DNA of 5,887 nucleotides. It comes from an uncultured Methanosarcinales archaeon (GTDB taxonomy: Archaea; Nanobdellota; Nanobdellia; Woesearchaeales; GW2011-AR9). The position numbers and the translations under genes are program-made. How positions within the stretch are numbered: position 1 is the stretch's first letter; every line of letters starts with the position of its first letter. Location: positions 26,114 through 32,000 of the forward strand of contig CAZIUU010000012.1 in NCBI GenBank assembly GCA_964542815.1. Direction: 5' to 3'. The notes under the pieces are model-generated. The model was not told where the DNA came from, ran no database searches, and was given only the letters and a program-made list of their open reading frames with translations. Shown here piece after piece: positions 1 through 5,887 of the stretch.

Positions 1-1008
1 AAGCTGTGCTACTACACGTTTTTCTACATCACCATATGCTTCTTCCCTTTTTGGAGCAATTGCATCAATTTCATCTATGAATATTACACCTGGTGAGTTT
101 TCTTTTGCTTCCTTGAATATGTCACGAAGTCTTGCCTCAGTTTCTCCGTAATACTTGTTCATTATTTCCGGACCATTAATAACAATGAAGTGAGAGTTAG
201 TTTCTGAAGCTACAGCTCGAGCCAGCAAAGTTTTACCGGTTCCCGGCGGGCCATGCAATAGCAATCCTTTAGGGGGCTCAATGCCTAACCTTTCAAATAT
301 CTCCGGATGTTTTAATGGCAGTTCTACCATTTCACGTATTTTTTTAATTTCATCGCCTAAGCCGCCGATATCTTCGTAATTTATTCCCGGAGCAGCTTCT
401 TCAGCTTCACTTATTTCTACCGCTTGAGGATTGAATTCTACTTCAGTTTCATCAGTTACCACTACAATTTCCTTCTTAGGATTGGTATCAATAACTCTAA
501 AATGAAGGTTTCCAAAGCCAAATCCGGCAAACTGGTTTTCTAAAGCCGAGAAGACGTCATCAATATCACGTCCGGGATCAACAAATCCCATCCTTCTTCT
601 GCCCGTCCGGCGTAATGCCACCAAGTCGCCCTTGACTAATGCTTTTCCCAGCAACCCCTGTTTGAATAGGTTAGGATGAGCCCGAATCATAACACCTTTG
701 TTTACTGGAGCAATTACCACTTTTTTAGCAGAATGAGCTTCAGTTTTTTTAACAAATACTAATTCTCCAATAGAAGTTTTGGCATTCTTTCTGGTGTTGC
801 CATCCATACGGATAATATTTAAGCCAATATCTCCAGGATAAGAACGGTCAACTATAGCTGCTGTTATCCTTTCTCCTCTGACTTCTACAATATCACCAGG
901 ATTTACGCCTAACTGGCGCATGAAAGAAGAATCAATTTTAACTAGACCTTTATTTACATCATCTTGTACTGCTTCCATTACTTTAAGCTTGATTTCTTGG
1001 TTAGGCAT
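1..1008 (-). CDS. cdc48: CDC48/VCP/p97-type AAA+ ATPase, N-terminal part (N domain plus start of D1); the 3' end lies beyond the left window edge
   Basis: Missing from the supplied ORF track because no stop codon falls in the window. My minus-strand translation from the ATG at 1008-1006 stays open for all 336 codons down to position 1. It begins [53 protein letters not shown], a CDC48 N-domain pattern. It continues through [59 protein letters not shown] (Walker A, nt ~229-252) and [18 protein letters not shown] (Walker B). Confidence 0.93.
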
Positions 1009-1026
1009 AGCTTATTTTAAAGGGAG

Positions 1027-1039
1027 TTTATATATAAAA
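1027..1039 (-). promoter_or_regulatory. Putative archaeal TATA box for cdc48
   Basis: The minus strand reads cTTTTATATATAAActccctttaaaataagctATG. The TTTATATA core ends about 22 nt upstream of the ATG at 1008, which fits a leaderless or very short-leader archaeal mRNA. Confidence 0.5.
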
Positions 1040-1088
1040 GTTGTGGTGTTACCATTGATAAATTTACTTTTGCAAAAGGAAATAATAC

Positions 1089-1574
1089 CTAATTCTCAAT
1101 AAAGCTCTGTAAAGAAAGATTGACTAAATTCTCTTTAGCCTGCATCTCTTTGAACTGAGGCTCAATTTTTATCATTACCTGCTCATCGCAGAAGGATCTT
1201 ACTAAAGGAACACCTTTTCCGCTCAGGCTGGAAATACATTCCGGAACTACGGCGCAAGATACTTGAGAACGTTCGGCTACTTCACGGTAAGTGAGAGGCG
1301 CTTCTTCGGTGTATAATACCAAAAAAACTTTCCTCTCCAGCTGATTTAAAGGAACAATGCTGGGTTTAGGAACTGGAGTTCCATTTTCCGCAGAATTCAA
1401 TTGTATTCGGTCCAACCGTTGCGAAAGCTTTTCAACTTTTACTTCAATCTGTTGTAGATAGTCAAACAGTGATTGTATCTCCTGCGTGTTATCATTAATT
1501 CCGCTTAAATGCTCCTCCAGAGCCTGGCGGACTTTTTGCAGTTCCAGCTGTATACTTTCATCTACATTAGACAT
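1089..1574 (-). CDS. DNA-binding protein: N-terminal coiled coil plus C-terminal winged helix-turn-helix (TrmB/MarR-like); putative transcription regulator
   Basis: The track ORF 1089-1580 starts at TTG. An in-frame ATG two codons downstream (1574-1572) gives MSNVDESIQLELQKVRQALEEHL. Residues ~1-60 are heptad-like and charged (coiled coil). A Pro-rich linker (GTPVPKPSIVP) follows. The C-terminus reads LNQLERKVFLVLYTEEAPLTYREVAERSQVSCAVVPECISSLSGKGVPLVR, the typical helix-turn-helix-wing pattern of archaeal wHTH regulators. Confidence 0.65.
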   Translation of the reverse strand: MSNVDESIQLELQKVRQALEEHLSGINDNTQEIQSLFDYLQQIEVKVEKLSQRLDRIQLNSAENGTPVPKPSIVPLNQLERKVFLVLYTEEAPLTYREVAERSQVSCAVVPECISSLSGKGVPLVRSFCDEQVMIKIEPQFKEMQAKENLVNLSLQSFIEN

Positions 1575-1721
1575 TTTCAAATCACAGATTTAATCTCTTT
1601 TCGCAACCTAATACGCGACGTTTATACATCTCGTATCTACCATCCACACCGAGAATTGGAATAACGAGGTGGTTTAAATAGCTTTCGTTTCAGCTTTAAA
1701 TTTCACTAGGGAATGATTAAC

Positions 1722-1729
1722 TTATTTTA
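1722..1729 (+). promoter_or_regulatory. Putative TATA box for the methyltransferase gene
   Basis: TTATTTTA ends 26 nt upstream of the ATG at 1756, and there is no SD-like motif in between. This fits a leaderless transcript. Confidence 0.4.
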
Positions 1730-1755
1730 TTGAAGAAAAGTGTCTTCGTATTAAA

Positions 1756-2376
1756 ATGTCTTTCCGCTCCAAAAAAGAATTGGAACTTGAACTAAGCAAG
1801 CTGAAAGCATTTGAAACGCCTTCAGTTAAGCTGGAACAATATTCTACTCCGGCACATATCGCTGCCGAATGGGTGTGGAACATGGCGATGAAGAGAGAAG
1901 TTGCCGGGAGAGTGATTTTAGATGCTGGCTGTGGAAATGGTATACTTGGATTAGGATTACTGTTATTGGGAGCAAAGAAAGTTTATTTTTTGGATACGGA
2001 TAAAACTGCGTTAGATATTTGTATCCAAAATTATAATCTACTAAAAGAAGAATATGAAATTGAAGAAGCCCAGTTTATCCATAGCGATATTTCGTTGTTT
2101 GATGGGGAAGTGGACATGGTAGTGCAAAACCCTCCCTTTGGAACGAAAGAAGAGCATGCCGACAAGAGGTTTTTGGAGAAAGCATTTTCAGTAGCAAAGA
2201 TAGTTTATTCCATGCATAAATATTCTACGGCATCATTTGTAGAAGCCATCTGTAAAGACTTCAGGTTTAAGATAACGGAGTTGTGGCGGTATGAACTGCC
2301 GATAAAGGCTACGTTTAAGTTCCACGAGAAGCCGGTGAAGTTTATTGACGTAGCAGTGTGGAGGATGGAGAAATAA
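1756..2376 (+). CDS. METTL5-family SAM-dependent RNA (N6-adenine) methyltransferase (COG2263-type)
   Basis: The 206-aa product is collinear with my recollection of METTL5 along its whole length. Matching blocks are KKELELELSKLKAFETPSVKLEQYSTPAHIAAEWVW (family signature LEQY.T.PHIAA), LDAGCGNGILGLGLLLLGAKKVYFLDTD (SAM motif I), VVQNPPFGTK (NPPF motif IV), and VYSMHKYST plus RYELPIKATFKFHEKP at the C-terminus. Confidence 0.9.
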   Translation: MSFRSKKELELELSKLKAFETPSVKLEQYSTPAHIAAEWVWNMAMKREVAGRVILDAGCGNGILGLGLLLLGAKKVYFLDTDKTALDICIQNYNLLKEEYEIEEAQFIHSDISLFDGEVDMVVQNPPFGTKEEHADKRFLEKAFSVAKIVYSMHKYSTASFVEAICKDFRFKITELWRYELPIKATFKFHEKPVKFIDVAVWRMEK

Positions 2377-2892
2377 TTACCTTTCTTTCCAATCCACAAA
2401 ATTATCTTTCTTTCTGTTGATGAAGAATAAAGTTACAAAGAAAGTAACCACCAAAATCACAAACCCAATCTTGCTTTTGCTTTGGAAGTACATCAACGTA
2501 GCTACAAACGTGGTTACGATACTACCCATGAATAAACCCATTACAATGGAATCCTGGAATTTGATGAATAGAGCGATGAGAAGAATGATTAGGTTAAATA
2601 TGATGATGAACATATACTTCTGCCCTTCATAGGCATTCTTATCCTGCTCCCAAGTTTTCTGTTCGGTAAAATACTGTTTTTGGCATTGTTCCTGCTTATC
2701 GGAAATGGCTACAGATTGAGCTTCACTGACTTTTTCAATAGCGGGATAAGGGTATTTGCTGTAACAATCCGGCCCTTGATAAAATGAATCTGTACCAGTA
2801 TATTTGGGAAAGAATACATTTGCTCCTAGGAATACCATGGGAACATAAAGTAAAACAATTATCAACACATATAATAGTTTAGTCCAGTTCAT
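2377..2892 (-). CDS. Integral membrane protein of unknown function (4 predicted TM helices with a Cys-containing extracytoplasmic loop)
   Basis: 171 aa. The N-terminal hydrophobic helix is WTKLLYVLIIVLLYVPMVFLGANVFF. A polar segment of ~70 aa follows, containing GPDCYSKYPYP and EQCQKQYF. Three further hydrophobic helices follow (YMFIIIFNLIILLIALFI, IVMGLFMGSIVTTFVATLMYF, IGFVILVVTFFVTLFFI). I recognise no family. Confidence 0.72.
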   Translation of the reverse strand: MNWTKLLYVLIIVLLYVPMVFLGANVFFPKYTGTDSFYQGPDCYSKYPYPAIEKVSEAQSVAISDKQEQCQKQYFTEQKTWEQDKNAYEGQKYMFIIIFNLIILLIALFIKFQDSIVMGLFMGSIVTTFVATLMYFQSKSKIGFVILVVTFFVTLFFINRKKDNFVDWKER

Positions 2893-2925
2893 TTTTGCTT
2901 CAAACAGAGTGAAAAAGGGAAAAAG

Positions 2926-2933
2926 TATTTAAA
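2926..2933. promoter_or_regulatory. TATA-like octamer TATTTAAA in the 69-nt divergent intergenic region, possibly serving both flanking genes
   Basis: It lies 28 nt upstream of the plus-strand ATG at 2962, preceded by the purine-rich BRE-like stretch GGGAAAAAG. It also lies 33 nt upstream of the minus-strand ATG at 2892. It is the only TATA-like element in the spacer. Confidence 0.45.
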
Positions 2934-2961
2934 GGTTCCCCTACTTCCTCCTATTACCAAG

Positions 2962-3585
2962 ATGTATCTTAAAATGATAAAACTAGCCCAAGGCGCAGAA
3001 GCGGTTATCTTTCGTGAAGGAGATAGAGTTATCAAAGAACGATTGAGCAAAGGTTATCGCATTCCGGAGATAGATGAAGCTTTACGCAAGTTCCGAACTA
3101 GAAGAGAAGCCAAGATATTACAGAGATTAGATGAGATACAGTTTCCTGCTCCACATTTACAAGAGTTTTCCGATAAGAGAATGTCTATTACTATGGATTT
3201 TCTTCCCGGGGAGAAGCTGAGAGATGTGTTGGAGAAAGGAGATGAGTATCAAGGATTGGCTAAAGAATTAGGCATGAAAATAGGAAAGCTTCATGCGCAG
3301 AATATTGTTCACGGAGACTTAACTACTTCAAATCTGTTAGTAGCGCCACAAACCAGAGAATTGAGCTTCATTGATTTCGGCTTGTCGATATTTTCGGATA
3401 AAGTAGAAGATAAAGCCGTAGATTTGTTCTTATTGGATAGAGCATTAGAAAGCAAGCATTACCAATTGTATCCGGAGATATTTGAGCAGATTATAGAAGG
3501 GTATAAAGAAGCTTATCCGGAAGCGGCAACAGTTTTGGACCGATTTAATGCCGTGATGAAAAGGGGCAGGAATAAGAAGAAGTGA
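2962..3585 (+). CDS. bud32: Bud32/PRPK atypical protein kinase, KEOPS complex subunit (tRNA t6A pathway)
   Basis: 207 aa with the small RIO-like kinase layout of Bud32. Motifs are LAQGAEAVIF (Gly-rich loop variant GAEA), RVIKER (beta3 Lys), RTRREAKILQRL, HGDLTTSNLL (catalytic loop), FIDFGLS (DFG equivalent) and DKAVDLFLLDRALES. An alternative start at ATG 2974 (MIKLAQGAEA) looks more like typical Bud32 N-termini. ATG 2962 fits the TATA spacing better. Confidence 0.9.
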   Translation: MYLKMIKLAQGAEAVIFREGDRVIKERLSKGYRIPEIDEALRKFRTRREAKILQRLDEIQFPAPHLQEFSDKRMSITMDFLPGEKLRDVLEKGDEYQGLAKELGMKIGKLHAQNIVHGDLTTSNLLVAPQTRELSFIDFGLSIFSDKVEDKAVDLFLLDRALESKHYQLYPEIFEQIIEGYKEAYPEAATVLDRFNAVMKRGRNKKK

Positions 3586-3610
3586 ATGGAGAATAGACAG
3601 AAAAGAATAA

Positions 3611-4156
3611 TCACTCTTCTCGACTTGCCCTAATATTCGCCATCATGAAAGCATGCTCTAAGAAAACATCCCGAAAAGTCTGCGAAGGGTCAGGATCAGA
3701 ACTGGAAAATCCGCCTTTGCTTTTGGCAGAGAGCAATAAAATCCGGAATAAAGTATCTGATTCATATTGGTTCATAATCTGCCCTAATTCTTTAATATTC
3801 AGGTCAACATAATTTCCATCACATGCATCCAAACGGTCACTACGATAAACTTGGGTGTACTCATTTCTTACGTTGGTATTAATGTGTTGTGCAGCCGAAA
3901 GCAGGTACATTTTATCAATGCCATAGCGAGCTCTCATCTCCAGGCTTTGAGCTCTGACTTTTTCATTTTCTTCAATAGATTTAGTTCCGGCAGTAGTATC
4001 CACCAACAAAAGCGAAGTCTCCTCGCCATCTTTTTGAAAGCCTTGGTAAAGTAAGCCAGTATAATTGTTTCTAATCTGTTTCCCAAATTGTCGGTAAAGA
4101 TGACAGACTATATCTATATCATCAGCTGGTTTTTTGAATACGCCCCCACCATGCAT
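3611..4156 (-). CDS. Hypothetical cytoplasmic protein (181 aa), last gene of the minus-strand operon; no recognisable family
   Basis: ATG-initiated ORF (MHGGGVFKKPADDIDIV...) starting 4 nt after the stop of the upstream ORF. It has no signal peptide or TM segment. The sequence downstream of its stop is T-rich on the minus strand (ttattcttttctgtctattc). The antisense ORF 3851-4054 is shorter and I consider it spurious. Confidence 0.68.
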   Translation of the reverse strand: MHGGGVFKKPADDIDIVCHLYRQFGKQIRNNYTGLLYQGFQKDGEETSLLLVDTTAGTKSIEENEKVRAQSLEMRARYGIDKMYLLSAAQHINTNVRNEYTQVYRSDRLDACDGNYVDLNIKELGQIMNQYESDTLFRILLLSAKSKGGFSSSDPDPSQTFRDVFLEHAFMMANIRASREE

Positions 4157-4160
4157 TTCA

Positions 4161-4724
4161 CTAAACTTTACGCAGGCGAGGTTCAGTATTCAGCATTGCA
4201 AGCACATAATCTGGTAAAGTATCTAAATTCTTATTTCTTCCCTCATTAATTTTCATCCTCTCCACAAGCAGCCTTCTTTCTTCTGCTCTTTTGAGTGCAG
4301 GAAATTCTCCGGCTAACCTGCGAAAATCTTCTAAAGTGAACGTCTTTACTTGCTGAATGATTGGATGCCTCTCTCCATACTCGGGAAACCATTCAGGGCG
4401 GGGCGGGCAACGAGCCCAGTCAGAGACGTCTTCTCCCCGGGCTTGCTCTCTTTGTATATAATAGTTCTGATTCCTAAAAGGAAGTACGGATGTACCAACA
4501 GGATAAACTAGACTAGTATGACTGAATCGTTCATCATAATAAAAACGGTGTGGAGCAGGCTCTAAATTGGTATCATCTTTGTAAAGAGGATTCAGAAAAC
4601 ACAAATCGTAATCTGAAGCTTCACAATTAGGTTCGGGCTTAACAAACCTGCTTTGAATGATCCTATTATCTCCGTTAGTAATAAACACGTCCTTATCAGT
4701 GATATAAACTCTGGCTTCTAACAT
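4161..4724 (-). CDS. Hypothetical protein (187 aa), paralogue B of the 5252-5797 product
   Basis: The ATG lies 2 nt after the upstream stop. A GGTGG(A) SD at 4732-4736 sits 7 nt upstream of it. The product shares ordered motif blocks with the 5252-5797 product (see findings). Confidence 0.75.
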   Translation of the reverse strand: MLEARVYITDKDVFITNGDNRIIQSRFVKPEPNCEASDYDLCFLNPLYKDDTNLEPAPHRFYYDERFSHTSLVYPVGTSVLPFRNQNYYIQREQARGEDVSDWARCPPRPEWFPEYGERHPIIQQVKTFTLEDFRRLAGEFPALKRAEERRLLVERMKINEGRNKNLDTLPDYVLAMLNTEPRLRKV

Positions 4725-4726
4725 TT

Positions 4727-5194
4727 CTATTCCACCTTCCGTAAACTCTTATCTCTAACCTTTTTTCCCTTTCTAACACACTTTTGGTAATTTAATTCTG
4801 CTGCTTCCAGGCAAAGTCTGGCCGCAGAATACACTGGCGGAAGTTCTTTTCCTAAATATTTAGTCAACTTGCCAGCACAGCTTTCCGGTTTATGGTTTTG
4901 CCCAGTAGAGCCGCTTTCTTTTTGGCTGGCATCTAAACAAGCACGGGCATCATGGTTAGCTTTATCCATAATCTCTTGCCTTTTCTGGCCCAAGTTGGTT
5001 ACACAATAGTGCATATCTGTGCGATATTGACCAGAACATTCTACTTCCCAGCGAATAGAGTTTCCCCTTTCTTCCAGTTCTTTTAGGTATTCCTCTGATT
5101 TTCTTAACAAGTCATTTGGATTACCCTCAGCCAGGCTAGGAGAAGCATAAGCTATAACTATAGCCGCCAGTCCGGATATAATTGTGTTTCTCAT
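4727..5194 (-). CDS. Secreted small protein with 6 cysteines (155 aa precursor), predicted helical; unknown function
   Basis: The track start at 5209 is a TTG lying inside the sequence tTTGGAGGcaacaaagATG. I place the start at ATG 5194-5192, with GGAGG (5203-5207) 8 nt upstream. The N-terminus MRNTIISGLAAIVIAYASPSLA|EG is a classic Sec signal peptide: a basic n-region, a hydrophobic core and an A-x-A-like cleavage site. The mature part has Cys in EVECSG, HYCVTN, ARACLD, PESCAGK, ARLCLE and QKCVRK. Confidence 0.75.
   Translation of the reverse strand: MRNTIISGLAAIVIAYASPSLAEGNPNDLLRKSEEYLKELEERGNSIRWEVECSGQYRTDMHYCVTNLGQKRQEIMDKANHDARACLDASQKESGSTGQNHKPESCAGKLTKYLGKELPPVYSAARLCLEAAELNYQKCVRKGKKVRDKSLRKVE
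4732..4736 (-). promoter_or_regulatory. Shine-Dalgarno-like GGTGG for ORF 4161-4724, embedded in the 3' end of the preceding ORF
   Basis: The minus strand reads gAAGGTGGAatagaaATG. The motif is complementary to the conserved 3' end of 16S rRNA (anti-SD CCUCC/CACCUCC). Spacing is 7 nt. Confidence 0.55.
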
Positions 5195-5202
5195 CTTTGT
5201 TG

Positions 5203-5207
5203 CCTCC
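5203..5207 (-). promoter_or_regulatory. Shine-Dalgarno GGAGG for the secreted-protein ORF
   Basis: Perfect GGAGG on the minus strand, 8 nt upstream of ATG 5194. Confidence 0.65.
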
Positions 5208-5251
5208 AAAAATTAGGTTTAACTTATTTTCATTCACTCTAGTCTTTTTCT

Positions 5252-5797
5252 TCATCTCTCTGCTTGCAGGAAATCCAGCATGGACCTTAGAGCAGGATTT
5301 CTTCCTTCTTCTAACTCTCTGATTCTATCTTCTAACTCTCGGATTTGGCTAGAGACACTTGCATTTTCAGCAGTACGGCTGGCACTATATCTTTCATAAA
5401 GATTCCGTAGTTCTGAACCGTTGAGCACTCTAACTTCCTGAACTATCGGATATTTCTGCCCATACTCTTTCGGCCAATAGGACCTTAAATGCGGTGGTTT
5501 TCCTTCGTCATCAAATTGGCGAACATGTGCCACTCCGATAAAATTAGGCACTAATCTGGTTCCGGTTGTAAAAGTAAAATCGAGGTGGTAATCTATATCT
5601 CTTCTTTCGTCTATAGCTGAAGGGTCTACATTTCCCCTAACGTATCCTAACCCGGTAAAATGGGGATGAGGAATTCTTCTCCCGAGAATATCATTTCTCT
5701 GGTCGGTAAGAAAATCATCTAGATCTGTGGTGTATAAGCGCAATTCCTTCACTCTAGAAAGGTCTATTTTCCAATCCAGATCAGATAAGTCGGCCAT
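5252..5797 (-). CDS. Hypothetical protein (181 aa), paralogue A of the 4161-4724 product; C-terminal coiled coil
   Basis: ATG-initiated ORF (MADLSDLDWKIDLSRVKELRLYTTD...) with GGAGGGG 8-10 nt upstream. It has no Cys, signal peptide or TM segment. The C-terminal heptad segment is SSQIRELEDRIRELEEGRN. Confidence 0.8.
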   Translation of the reverse strand: MADLSDLDWKIDLSRVKELRLYTTDLDDFLTDQRNDILGRRIPHPHFTGLGYVRGNVDPSAIDERRDIDYHLDFTFTTGTRLVPNFIGVAHVRQFDDEGKPPHLRSYWPKEYGQKYPIVQEVRVLNGSELRNLYERYSASRTAENASVSSQIRELEDRIRELEEGRNPALRSMLDFLQAER

Positions 5798-5798
5798 T

Positions 5799-5887
5799 TT
5801 AATAACCCCTCCACTTTGGGGGAACGTATCCCTCGCTAAGCTTTGCTGCTAGCCGCGAACAAAATTCGGTGCTATTAATCCTCTCCA
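5799..5887 (-). CDS. Possible 3' end of a further upstream operon gene (partial, continues beyond the right window edge)
   Basis: The minus-strand frame starting at 5885 is open for 28 codons (ERINSTEFCSRLAAKLSEGYVPPKWRGY). It ends at TAA 5801-5799, only 1 nt before the ATG of ORF 5252-5797. This matches the 2- and 4-nt couplings further down the operon. The stretch is short, so chance openness cannot be excluded. A second frame is open only to TAG 5851-5849. Confidence 0.3.
   Translation of the reverse strand, partial: ERINSTEFCSRLAAKLSEGYVPPKWRGY
5806..5812 (-). promoter_or_regulatory. Shine-Dalgarno GGAGGGG for ORF 5252-5797
   Basis: The minus strand reads gtGGAGGGGttattaaaATG. Confidence 0.6.

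Follow-up and report, generated by a model that had tools for sequence, protein, structure and literature searches.

The window analysed here is a 5,887-nucleotide (nt) stretch of contig CAZIUU010000012.1 from an uncultured archaeon of the Woesearchaeales, and our subject is a run of four genes on its minus strand, called A, C, B and D in order of transcription. A and B are paralogues, and we refer to their homologues in other genomes as A-type and B-type genes. The four open reading frames (ORFs) are separated by 57 nt (A–C), 2 nt (C–B) and 4 nt (B–D), just as a first-pass annotation, made from the letters alone, had placed them. It had also pointed to an open frame running from the window edge to a TAA 1 nt before the first ATG, and this frame does extend for 28 codons from position 5885 (Table 1). 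Our preferred reading, to which we give a probability of roughly 0.62, is that the locus is a mosaic, in which an exchanged accessory cassette, A-C-B, lies beside a truncated resident gene, D, in a variable region of a genome of the DPANN archaea. Archaea of this kind live in dependence on host cells, and their tiny genomes abound in orphan genes.

Table 1. Features of the four-gene locus and its immediate flanks (positions within the window; aa, amino acids).
Feature	Position	Strand	Description
Gene A	5252-5797	minus	181 aa; A-type member of the A/B family; cytoplasmic; no Cys; GGAGG 10 nt 5′ of ATG
Gene C	4727-5194	minus	155 aa; small, predicted exported; 6 Cys; GGAGG 8 nt 5′ of ATG
Gene B	4161-4724	minus	187 aa; B-type member of the A/B family; GGTGG 7 nt 5′ of start
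Gene D	3611-4156	minus	181 aa; intact ORF; 5′-truncated copy of a 336-338-aa gene
B/D junction, putatively recombinational	4153-4163	minus	B stop TAG, flank TGAAAT, then homology to the 338-aa gene (GCATGGTGGG...)
A-C spacer	5195-5251	minus	57 nt, with GGAGG and an A/T-rich stretch, AAAATAAGTTAAA
Upstream gene end	5799-5885	minus	final 28 codons and stop; TAA at 5801-5799, 1 nt before the A ATG
Bud32 (KEOPS kinase)	2962-3585	plus	convergent with D; 85.6% nt identity to L022; conserved anchor for comparing relatives

The case for a mosaic begins with D. In a close relative of the window, locus L022 (loci of other genomes carry L numbers), the genes convergent with Bud32 encode, in this order, a Fic protein, proteins of 338 aa and 298 aa, and a TrmB regulator. 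Positions 3599-4152 of the window match positions 1860-2425 of L022, and residues 3-180 of D align with residues 156-337 of the L022 338-aa protein at 78% identity. A tblastn search of the full-length protein against the window recovered residues 156-337 only; residues 1-155 had no match of any kind. Four full-length homologues of D (P0031-P0034) are 336-338 aa long, one of them just 45% identical, and they combine an N-terminal domain of about 155 aa with a C-terminal domain of about 183 aa. D holds the C-terminal domain alone, at 79-82% identity to that of P0031-P0034 (78-82% for the family as a whole), and shows no private change at any of the 70 sites that are invariant among the four. Because all four homologues are full-length, the 45%-identical one included, the two-domain form is ancestral, and D is, as judged from these alignments, a 5′-truncated remnant of an unrelated resident gene of 336-338 aa.

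The junction itself can be read at nucleotide resolution. DNA alignment places it at codons 1-2 of D, homology to the long gene beginning at codon 2, and blastn blocks end at window position 4152 against L022 and at 4155 against locus L006. The 3′ flank of the B-type gene, GTTTAGTGAAAT, which includes the TGAAAT after the stop, is common to the window and L006 and runs into GCATGGTGGGGGC, the W-H-G-G-G stretch of the long gene. The ATG of D is assembled from both sides, taking AT from the B flank and the next G. A chimeric contig or an assembly artefact at this point was considered and ruled out, as three independent Logan per-run assemblies carry the B 3′ end, D and Bud32 in this arrangement at 100% identity. 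As a side observation, the N-terminal domain that D lacks carries invariant Cys83-Glu84 and Cys143-His144-Asp145, which we speculate could form a thiol-enzyme-like site, and the C-terminal domain that D retains has the conserved acidic motifs LLVDT, RYGID and RLDACD.

The second line of evidence concerns B-type genes in other genomes. Across three pairs of close relatives the flanks are 76-96% identical, while the B-type gene at the same site is 33-41% identical or absent. Between L006 and L014, amino-acid identity reaches 96.5% for TrmB, 90% for AsnC, 87% for Dph5 and 76% for a 308-aa protein, E308, and the flanking DNA is 79-87% identical, whereas the B-type genes are 33% identical and have no nucleotide similarity; homology breaks 14 nt past the E308 stop and resumes exactly at the Dph5 stop. 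L001 and L016 share a convergent methyltransferase (87.6% at the amino-acid level) and downstream DNA (91.6% at the nucleotide level), with B-type genes 39-41% identical and upstream genes that differ. The L001 B-type protein is instead 70% identical to that of L006 (77.7% over 542 nt of DNA), a likeness limited to a remnant of an A-type gene and the B-type gene in 17-18-kb loci that are otherwise unrelated. A recombination breakpoint inside the B-type gene was also considered for L001 and L016 and set aside, since the 3′ ends are only 62-67% identical in nucleotides, with no clear breakpoint.

In the third comparison, among the close relatives of the window itself, the cassette is absent from L020, L017 and L022, a presence/absence pattern for which the first-pass annotation had proposed to look. 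L020 has DsbA-like and aminotransferase genes after a 171-aa membrane protein, L017 has other genes, and L022 has the Fic gene and the intact 338-aa gene at the site next to Bud32. This Fic gene (L022 755-1756, minus strand, 333 aa) matches the PADLOC SoFic/PDC-S04 models (E 4.5e-36); because the window lacks it, the site next to Bud32 is a hot spot of gain and loss. Judged by these alignments, B-type genes are exchanged or replaced both between close relatives and between unrelated contexts. Since the flanks are conserved while the B-type genes differ, and since the L001 copy is nearest to the L006 copy in an unrelated context, the A/B family appears to behave as a horizontally exchanged accessory cassette and not to diverge in a clock-like manner.

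All four ORFs are real genes and not chance frames, because A, B and D have homologues with ratios of nonsynonymous to synonymous substitution (dN/dS) of 0.13-0.22 and C has one weak homologue. By the pairwise Nei-Gojobori method the ratios are 0.21 for A, 0.17-0.22 for B and 0.13 for D, rough values for A and B, where dS is near saturation; those of Bud32, METTL5 and the 171-aa membrane protein are lower, at 0.04-0.08. Shine-Dalgarno-like GGAGG or GGTGG motifs stand 7-10 nt upstream of the starts of A, C and B, and none precedes D. The 155-aa ATG form of C is the version in the public protein collection. From the spacing, co-transcription of A, C and B is likely, probably with read-through into D, and the A/T-rich stretch in the A-C spacer is a possible internal archaeal promoter. 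Sigma-70 promoter and terminator scans performed at chance level; their models are bacterial and do not apply to archaea.

The paralogy of A and B, suggested in the first-pass annotation, extends over the full length of both proteins (BLASTP E=1e-12, 26-27% identity), and each scores more than 170 bits against the family hidden Markov model (HMM). Members share the collinear motifs (R)-V/L-Y-x-T/A-D/E-x-D-x-F, G-T-x-V-x-P, (E)Y-x-x-x-(Y/H)P-I/L and, near the C-terminus, E-G-R-N/D-x-x-L. In a nine-member alignment the only invariant residues are Y, D, F, I, L, G, P, Y, P and R, and the nine have no catalytic-looking or toxin-like residue set. Because what is invariant is of structural type, apart from one Asp, one Tyr and one Arg, we infer a non-enzymatic role for A and B, as binding proteins or adaptors. 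A 21-nt tandem direct repeat within A (window 5302-5343, 86% identity) encodes a duplicated heptad-like IRELEDR/IRELEEG in a long C-terminal helix.

This family is very small. A word-index search returned just P0002, 56% identical, for A and nothing for B; it missed known relatives (the L001 B-type protein, P0037, for query B, and D itself, P0010, for the 338-aa query), so its counts are lower bounds. The census was therefore taken from an exhaustive HMMER profile search (E<=1e-3) of 1.84 billion proteins, which found 7 representatives, all on DPANN-type contigs. A scan of 185,579 GTDB species-representative genomes yielded one further locus, in a Candidatus Nanoarchaeia archaeon, and a scan of 241 M JGI metagenome records yielded one organism, found twice; IMG/VR, PLSDB plasmids and INPHARED phages contained no relatives. 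B-type is the most widespread type and the sole element common to all loci.

Library searches bore out the earlier statement that none of the four products can be assigned to a known family. A, B, C and D had no match beyond noise at E<=1 in Pfam, NCBIfam, PADLOC or PHROGs, and sequence searches of PDB were likewise without a match, whether the query was a single protein or one of the profiles A3, A5 and A6. In PADLOC-DB 2.0, A-D gave none at E<=1, and P0005-8, E308 and the 338-aa protein none at E<=0.1. Pfam and NCBIfam placed no type II toxin-antitoxin domain (such as PIN, RelE/ParE, MazF, HEPN, AbrB/MazE, RHH or HTH) in the coupled genes, and A-D contain no nuclease, NTPase, TIR, SIR2 or HEPN-type domain. 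Literature searches retrieved no record for the accession numbers and nothing directly relevant for DPANN hypervariability.

An AlphaFold2 model of B built on an 8-sequence alignment reached a predicted local distance difference test (pLDDT) score of 81.4 and a predicted template modelling (pTM) score of 0.70; that of A, built on three sequences, was unusable (pLDDT 47.5). The B model opens with an N-terminal sheet of six strands, after which come a short helix, one of 32 residues (131-162) and a final helix (170-180). Foldseek found no significant neighbour for it, with best E-values of 1.2 in PDB and 0.41 in BFVD and template modelling (TM) scores of at most 0.39. Several Hint domains recurred among the top TM-scores, a likeness to the Hint/intein-like β fold that we attribute to chance: 2lwy, 7cfv and 4e2t score 0.22-0.31, all at E>7 and with probabilities of at most 0.13, the N-terminal Cys/Ser, TxxH and terminal HN are not conserved, and no Pfam Hint or intein model matches at E<=10. 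On the model and the libraries searched, the A/B proteins would constitute an undescribed family with a predicted fold that has no PDB or BFVD neighbour. They probably pair through the C-terminal helical hairpin of the model, as a homodimer where a B-type gene occurs alone and as an A/B heterodimer here.

The other loci show how the pair may have evolved. L001 carries its A and B homologues, A′ and B′, side by side with 2 nt between them, and neither C nor D is there. A and A′, like B and B′, are 56% identical, compared with 26% for A and B; therefore the A-B duplication predates these lineages. In L006, the 83-nt spacer between the E308 stop and the B-type start (7919-8001) reads DNRKMNELRNLALKSLLDFLQSSERS in one frame, an A-type C-terminus representing the last ~22 codons (…NELRNLALKSLLDFLQSSERS), which matches the 3′ end of L001 A′ (74% over 81 nt, E=1e-10) and window positions 5250-5303 (83.6%). 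Because the spacer retains this remnant, A was lost there from an ancestral A-B tandem, and it is dispensable. B-type genes stand alone, with no A, C or D, in L006, L009 and L014.

Both L006 and L014 have the order TrmB, a 69-aa gene, E308 and the B-type gene, convergent with diphthine synthase. E308 (308 aa; L006 6992-7918, L014 994-1920) has no Pfam, PDB or PADLOC match; it always lies directly 5′ of the B-type gene, in a unit headed by the 96.5%-conserved TrmB-type regulator and the 69-aa ORF. In L012, P0008 (920-1822) fuses an A-like domain to the N-terminal helical domain of E308, about 100 aa long (the E-N domain), neither part having a Pfam, NCBIfam or PDB match, and the gene after it (1932-2375) encodes a stand-alone E-N protein. 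From this one fusion protein and the two adjacent genes, we infer that A/B proteins work with an E-N domain in some lineages. Associations that recur are A-B (two genomes and one remnant), a Cys-rich gene followed by B (two genomes) and E-N (three genomes).

Several wider relationships were tried and rejected. The 69-aa ORF upstream of E308 resembles a degraded A-type N-terminus by eye (RVYYIDDE, YPL-EIE), and its HMM score is no better than that of shuffles. Neither the 308-aa protein of L006 nor a 323-aa protein of L009 is A-like, the latter being an AbrB/MazE-domain regulator, after which the B-type gene of that locus comes. As distant A/B homologues, the 338-aa N-terminal domain and E308 reached hhalign probabilities of just 0.05-0.14, and a strong match between profiles A3 and A6 is artefactual, because A3 includes the P0008 fusion. 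L009 also has long co-oriented gene runs without Pfam match around its B-type gene (247-5730 and 10687-14819), which may be an integrated element or typical DPANN dark matter; a membrane-anchored Cys-rich 210-aa protein is encoded two genes downstream of the B-type gene, and a HEPN-NTase pair lies nearby.

Gene C was described earlier as encoding a secreted Cys protein, and its features agree: a hydrophobic, signal-like N-terminus (peak Kyte-Doolittle value 1.95 at residue 4) precedes a mature part with six Cys, consistent with a small exported protein of disulfide type. A, B and D have no hydrophobic segment. The only homologue of C or D found in other family loci is a weak one of C, a Cys-rich ORF in L016 that ends 2 nt before the B-type gene (E=1e-4, four Cys in register).

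Taken together, these observations can be accommodated by the following scheme. A-C-B would be an accessory cassette in a variable region of a Woesearchaeota/Nanoarchaeia (DPANN) genome, with A and B as products of an ancient duplication within a very small family of putatively cytoplasmic α/β proteins that is restricted to DPANN. Recombination would have joined this cassette to a point midway along a resident gene of 337 aa, removing about 155 N-terminal codons, leaving D as a stand-alone C-terminal domain and creating its start codon at the junction.

The first-pass annotation had proposed a different layout, a conserved gene followed by a variable partner, twice, and had called this pattern common in conflict/defence, toxin-immunity or surface-interaction cassettes. 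Taken as a full model, it gives a dedicated conflict cassette for defence or toxin-immunity whose two modules, each a paralogue with its own partner, would all act together. Tight spacing, a shared strand, orphan proteins, strain-specific presence and the hypervariability of B-type genes are all compatible with such a cassette, as are the C-like gene before the B-type gene in L016 and the SoFic-type gene at the neighbouring position in L022. The pairing itself, however, breaks down on D, which is the 3′ remnant of an unrelated gene and owes its start codon to the junction, on the directly adjacent, partnerless A′ and B′ of L001, and on the three loci with a solitary B-type gene. Because C follows A here and a C-like gene precedes B in L016, 'A then its partner' is not what recurs, and gene-neighbourhood comparison found the four genes together as a set nowhere else. 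Since A-D also lack a PADLOC match and any toxin-like catalytic motif, we consider this cassette very unlikely. A looser form of the conflict idea, in which the A/B genes belong to a new system, for example as sensor or adaptor, with a B-type gene or an A-B pair as the unit and C and D as bystanders, is unlikely. It would account for the replaced alleles found at two sites in close relatives, for the presence/absence seen at a third, and for dN/dS above that of housekeeping neighbours; genes of conflict type also lie within a few kb, namely Mrr_cat and HEPN in L001, the HEPN-NTase pair and the AbrB/MazE-domain protein in L009, and Fic and ParE in L014. Yet archaeal genomes in general abound in HEPN, PIN and Fic genes, which makes their proximity weak evidence; the surroundings in L006 and L014 are stable, with housekeeping genes such as diphthine synthase among them, and the A/B proteins have no effector-like domain or motif. 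What survives of the original suggestion is indirect, namely B-type replacement between relatives and the SoFic-type gene of L022; the part that looked to known defence systems found no PADLOC match, either for A-D or for the family.

Two further readings dispense with exchange or with a cellular home for the genes. An ordinary, vertically inherited operon of fast-evolving, lineage-specific hypothetical genes, shaped by in-situ divergence and gene loss, would be in keeping with purifying selection on A, B and D, with a GC content of 0.39-0.43 that resembles the surroundings, with the general abundance of orphan genes in DPANN genomes and with the lack of integrase, transposase, tRNA and border repeats. 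It is hard to reconcile with the L001 B-type protein, 70% identical to its L006 counterpart in an unrelated context and only 39% to the positional counterpart in its close relative L016, with the sharp homology breaks at gene borders between L006 and L014, or with the truncation junction inside the 338-aa gene, and we hold it to be quite improbable. Strain-specific presence, all-orphan content, disruption of a resident gene and the long runs of unmatched genes in L009 might instead recall a fragment of an integrated virus or other mobile element. The absence of relatives in IMG/VR, INPHARED and PLSDB, of PHROG matches and of integrase, tRNA or att-like repeats in the window, together with the position of the L006, L014 and L001 copies between cellular genes, makes this reading hardly credible.

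The mosaic of an exchanged cassette and a truncated gene therefore remains our preferred reading, and several points weigh against it. The sample is small, about seven genomes, and the cassette's right-hand border falls beyond the window. No mobility machinery is apparent, as no tRNA, Rfam family, integrase, transposase or meaningful direct, inverted or border repeat was found in the window. For each pair of relatives, extreme in-situ divergence of the B-type genes is formally conceivable. The full-length state of even the 45%-identical homologue makes a fusion in other lineages, in place of a truncation of D, unlikely. The undecayed state of D, unchanged at all 70 sites, may mean either a recent event or a functional stand-alone domain, and the genome may still contain the lost N-terminal half at another place. 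The proposed dimer or adaptor role comes from a predicted helical hairpin and the lack of catalytic-looking invariants among nine sequences. The other A/B members, E308, the 338-aa protein and L022_298 gave nothing significant in profile libraries.

The kind of behaviour described here is already known. Flexible or hypervariable islands, such as O-antigen, pilin and S-layer loci and 'metagenomic islands', exchange strain-variable accessory genes by allele replacement between conserved flanks. The present loci resemble them in having flanks 76-96% identical around a gene version 33-41% identical or around a different gene set, and in that, for one allele, the closer match is a copy in another genome and not the counterpart at the same position. 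They differ in that the products are small and cytoplasmic, with no signal peptide or transmembrane segment, and are not surface structures, and in that the replaced unit is only about 0.6-1.7 kb, with no glycosyltransferase or surface-antigen logic. Defence islands and PADLOC candidates such as SoFic/PDC-S04 share the variable location, the presence/absence pattern and, in L022, an adjacent SoFic-like gene, but no A-D, E308, 338-aa or family protein matches any PADLOC model. Toxin-antitoxin and polymorphic toxin-immunity cassettes likewise consist of small, tightly coupled genes with rapid turnover and paralogous tandem copies; here, however, the tandem genes are paralogues of each other and not toxin and antidote, no toxin fold or motif is recognisable, and a B-type gene occurs alone in three genomes. 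D compares with the 336-338-aa Woesearchaeota family in its C-terminal homology, with all 70 invariant sites kept, and departs from it in lacking the ~155-aa N-terminal domain and in starting at a junction-made ATG. Particular to this case are thus the cytoplasmic products, the tiny replaced unit, the restriction to DPANN and the truncation that created a new start codon.

Rapid allele turnover suggests inter-organism conflict or interaction, with a virus, a host or a competitor, rather than housekeeping, and such a role is plausible but unproven. We tentatively speculate, against the odds as we see them, that the A/B family is the core of an unrecognised DPANN-specific conflict or partner-recognition system: a cytoplasmic homo- or heterodimer of novel fold, sometimes coupled to an E-N domain or an exported Cys-rich protein, whose alleles would be kept diverse and exchanged among Woesearchaeales by recombination, driven by an arms race with viruses or with the host cell of these episymbionts. 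Should the rapid exchange indeed reflect an arms race, the family would stand for a new module of conflict or host interaction specific to DPANN. The locus offers a concrete, checkable case of how DPANN orphan genes behave, in which a cassette can land in a resident gene and yield a new, shorter gene with a junction-made start codon. It also counsels caution in annotation: because one of the four 'coupled' genes is a by-product of rearrangement, tight spacing and a shared strand are not enough to define a functional operon.

The CDC48, METTL5 and Bud32 neighbours recognised by eye in the first-pass annotation are all borne out. Positions 4-1008 are collinear with the CDC48 gene of relatives, the METTL5-like ORF matches Pfam MTS (E 3.5e-12), and the Bud32 ORF matches RIO1/Pkinase; the source names on record are 'methyltransferase [Candidatus Woesearchaeota archaeon]' and 'KEOPS complex kinase/ATPase Bud32 [Nanoarchaeota archaeon]'. 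These neighbours place the organism among the DPANN archaea, in the Woesearchaeota/Nanoarchaeia group. For the gene that ends just upstream of A, local alignments of its 28 C-terminal residues with E308, L022_298, the L012 147-aa proteins and others were no better than those of shuffles. A diversity-generating retroelement was also considered: only short, chance-level repeats occur in 3400-5887, and the window ORFs include no reverse transcriptase domain. At 1089-1580 on the minus strand lies a gene for a 163-aa protein with a coiled-coil N-terminus and a weak TrmB/winged helix-turn-helix match (E 1.5e-4, below the Pfam cut-off); every relative keeps this gene in place between those for CDC48 and the methyltransferase, and in L017 and L020 it is 161 aa long. 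Elsewhere in L017, a 4.3-kb stretch without called genes (13174-17470) is followed by a LAGLIDADG ORF; together they probably represent an rRNA gene and a homing endonuclease encoded in its intron.

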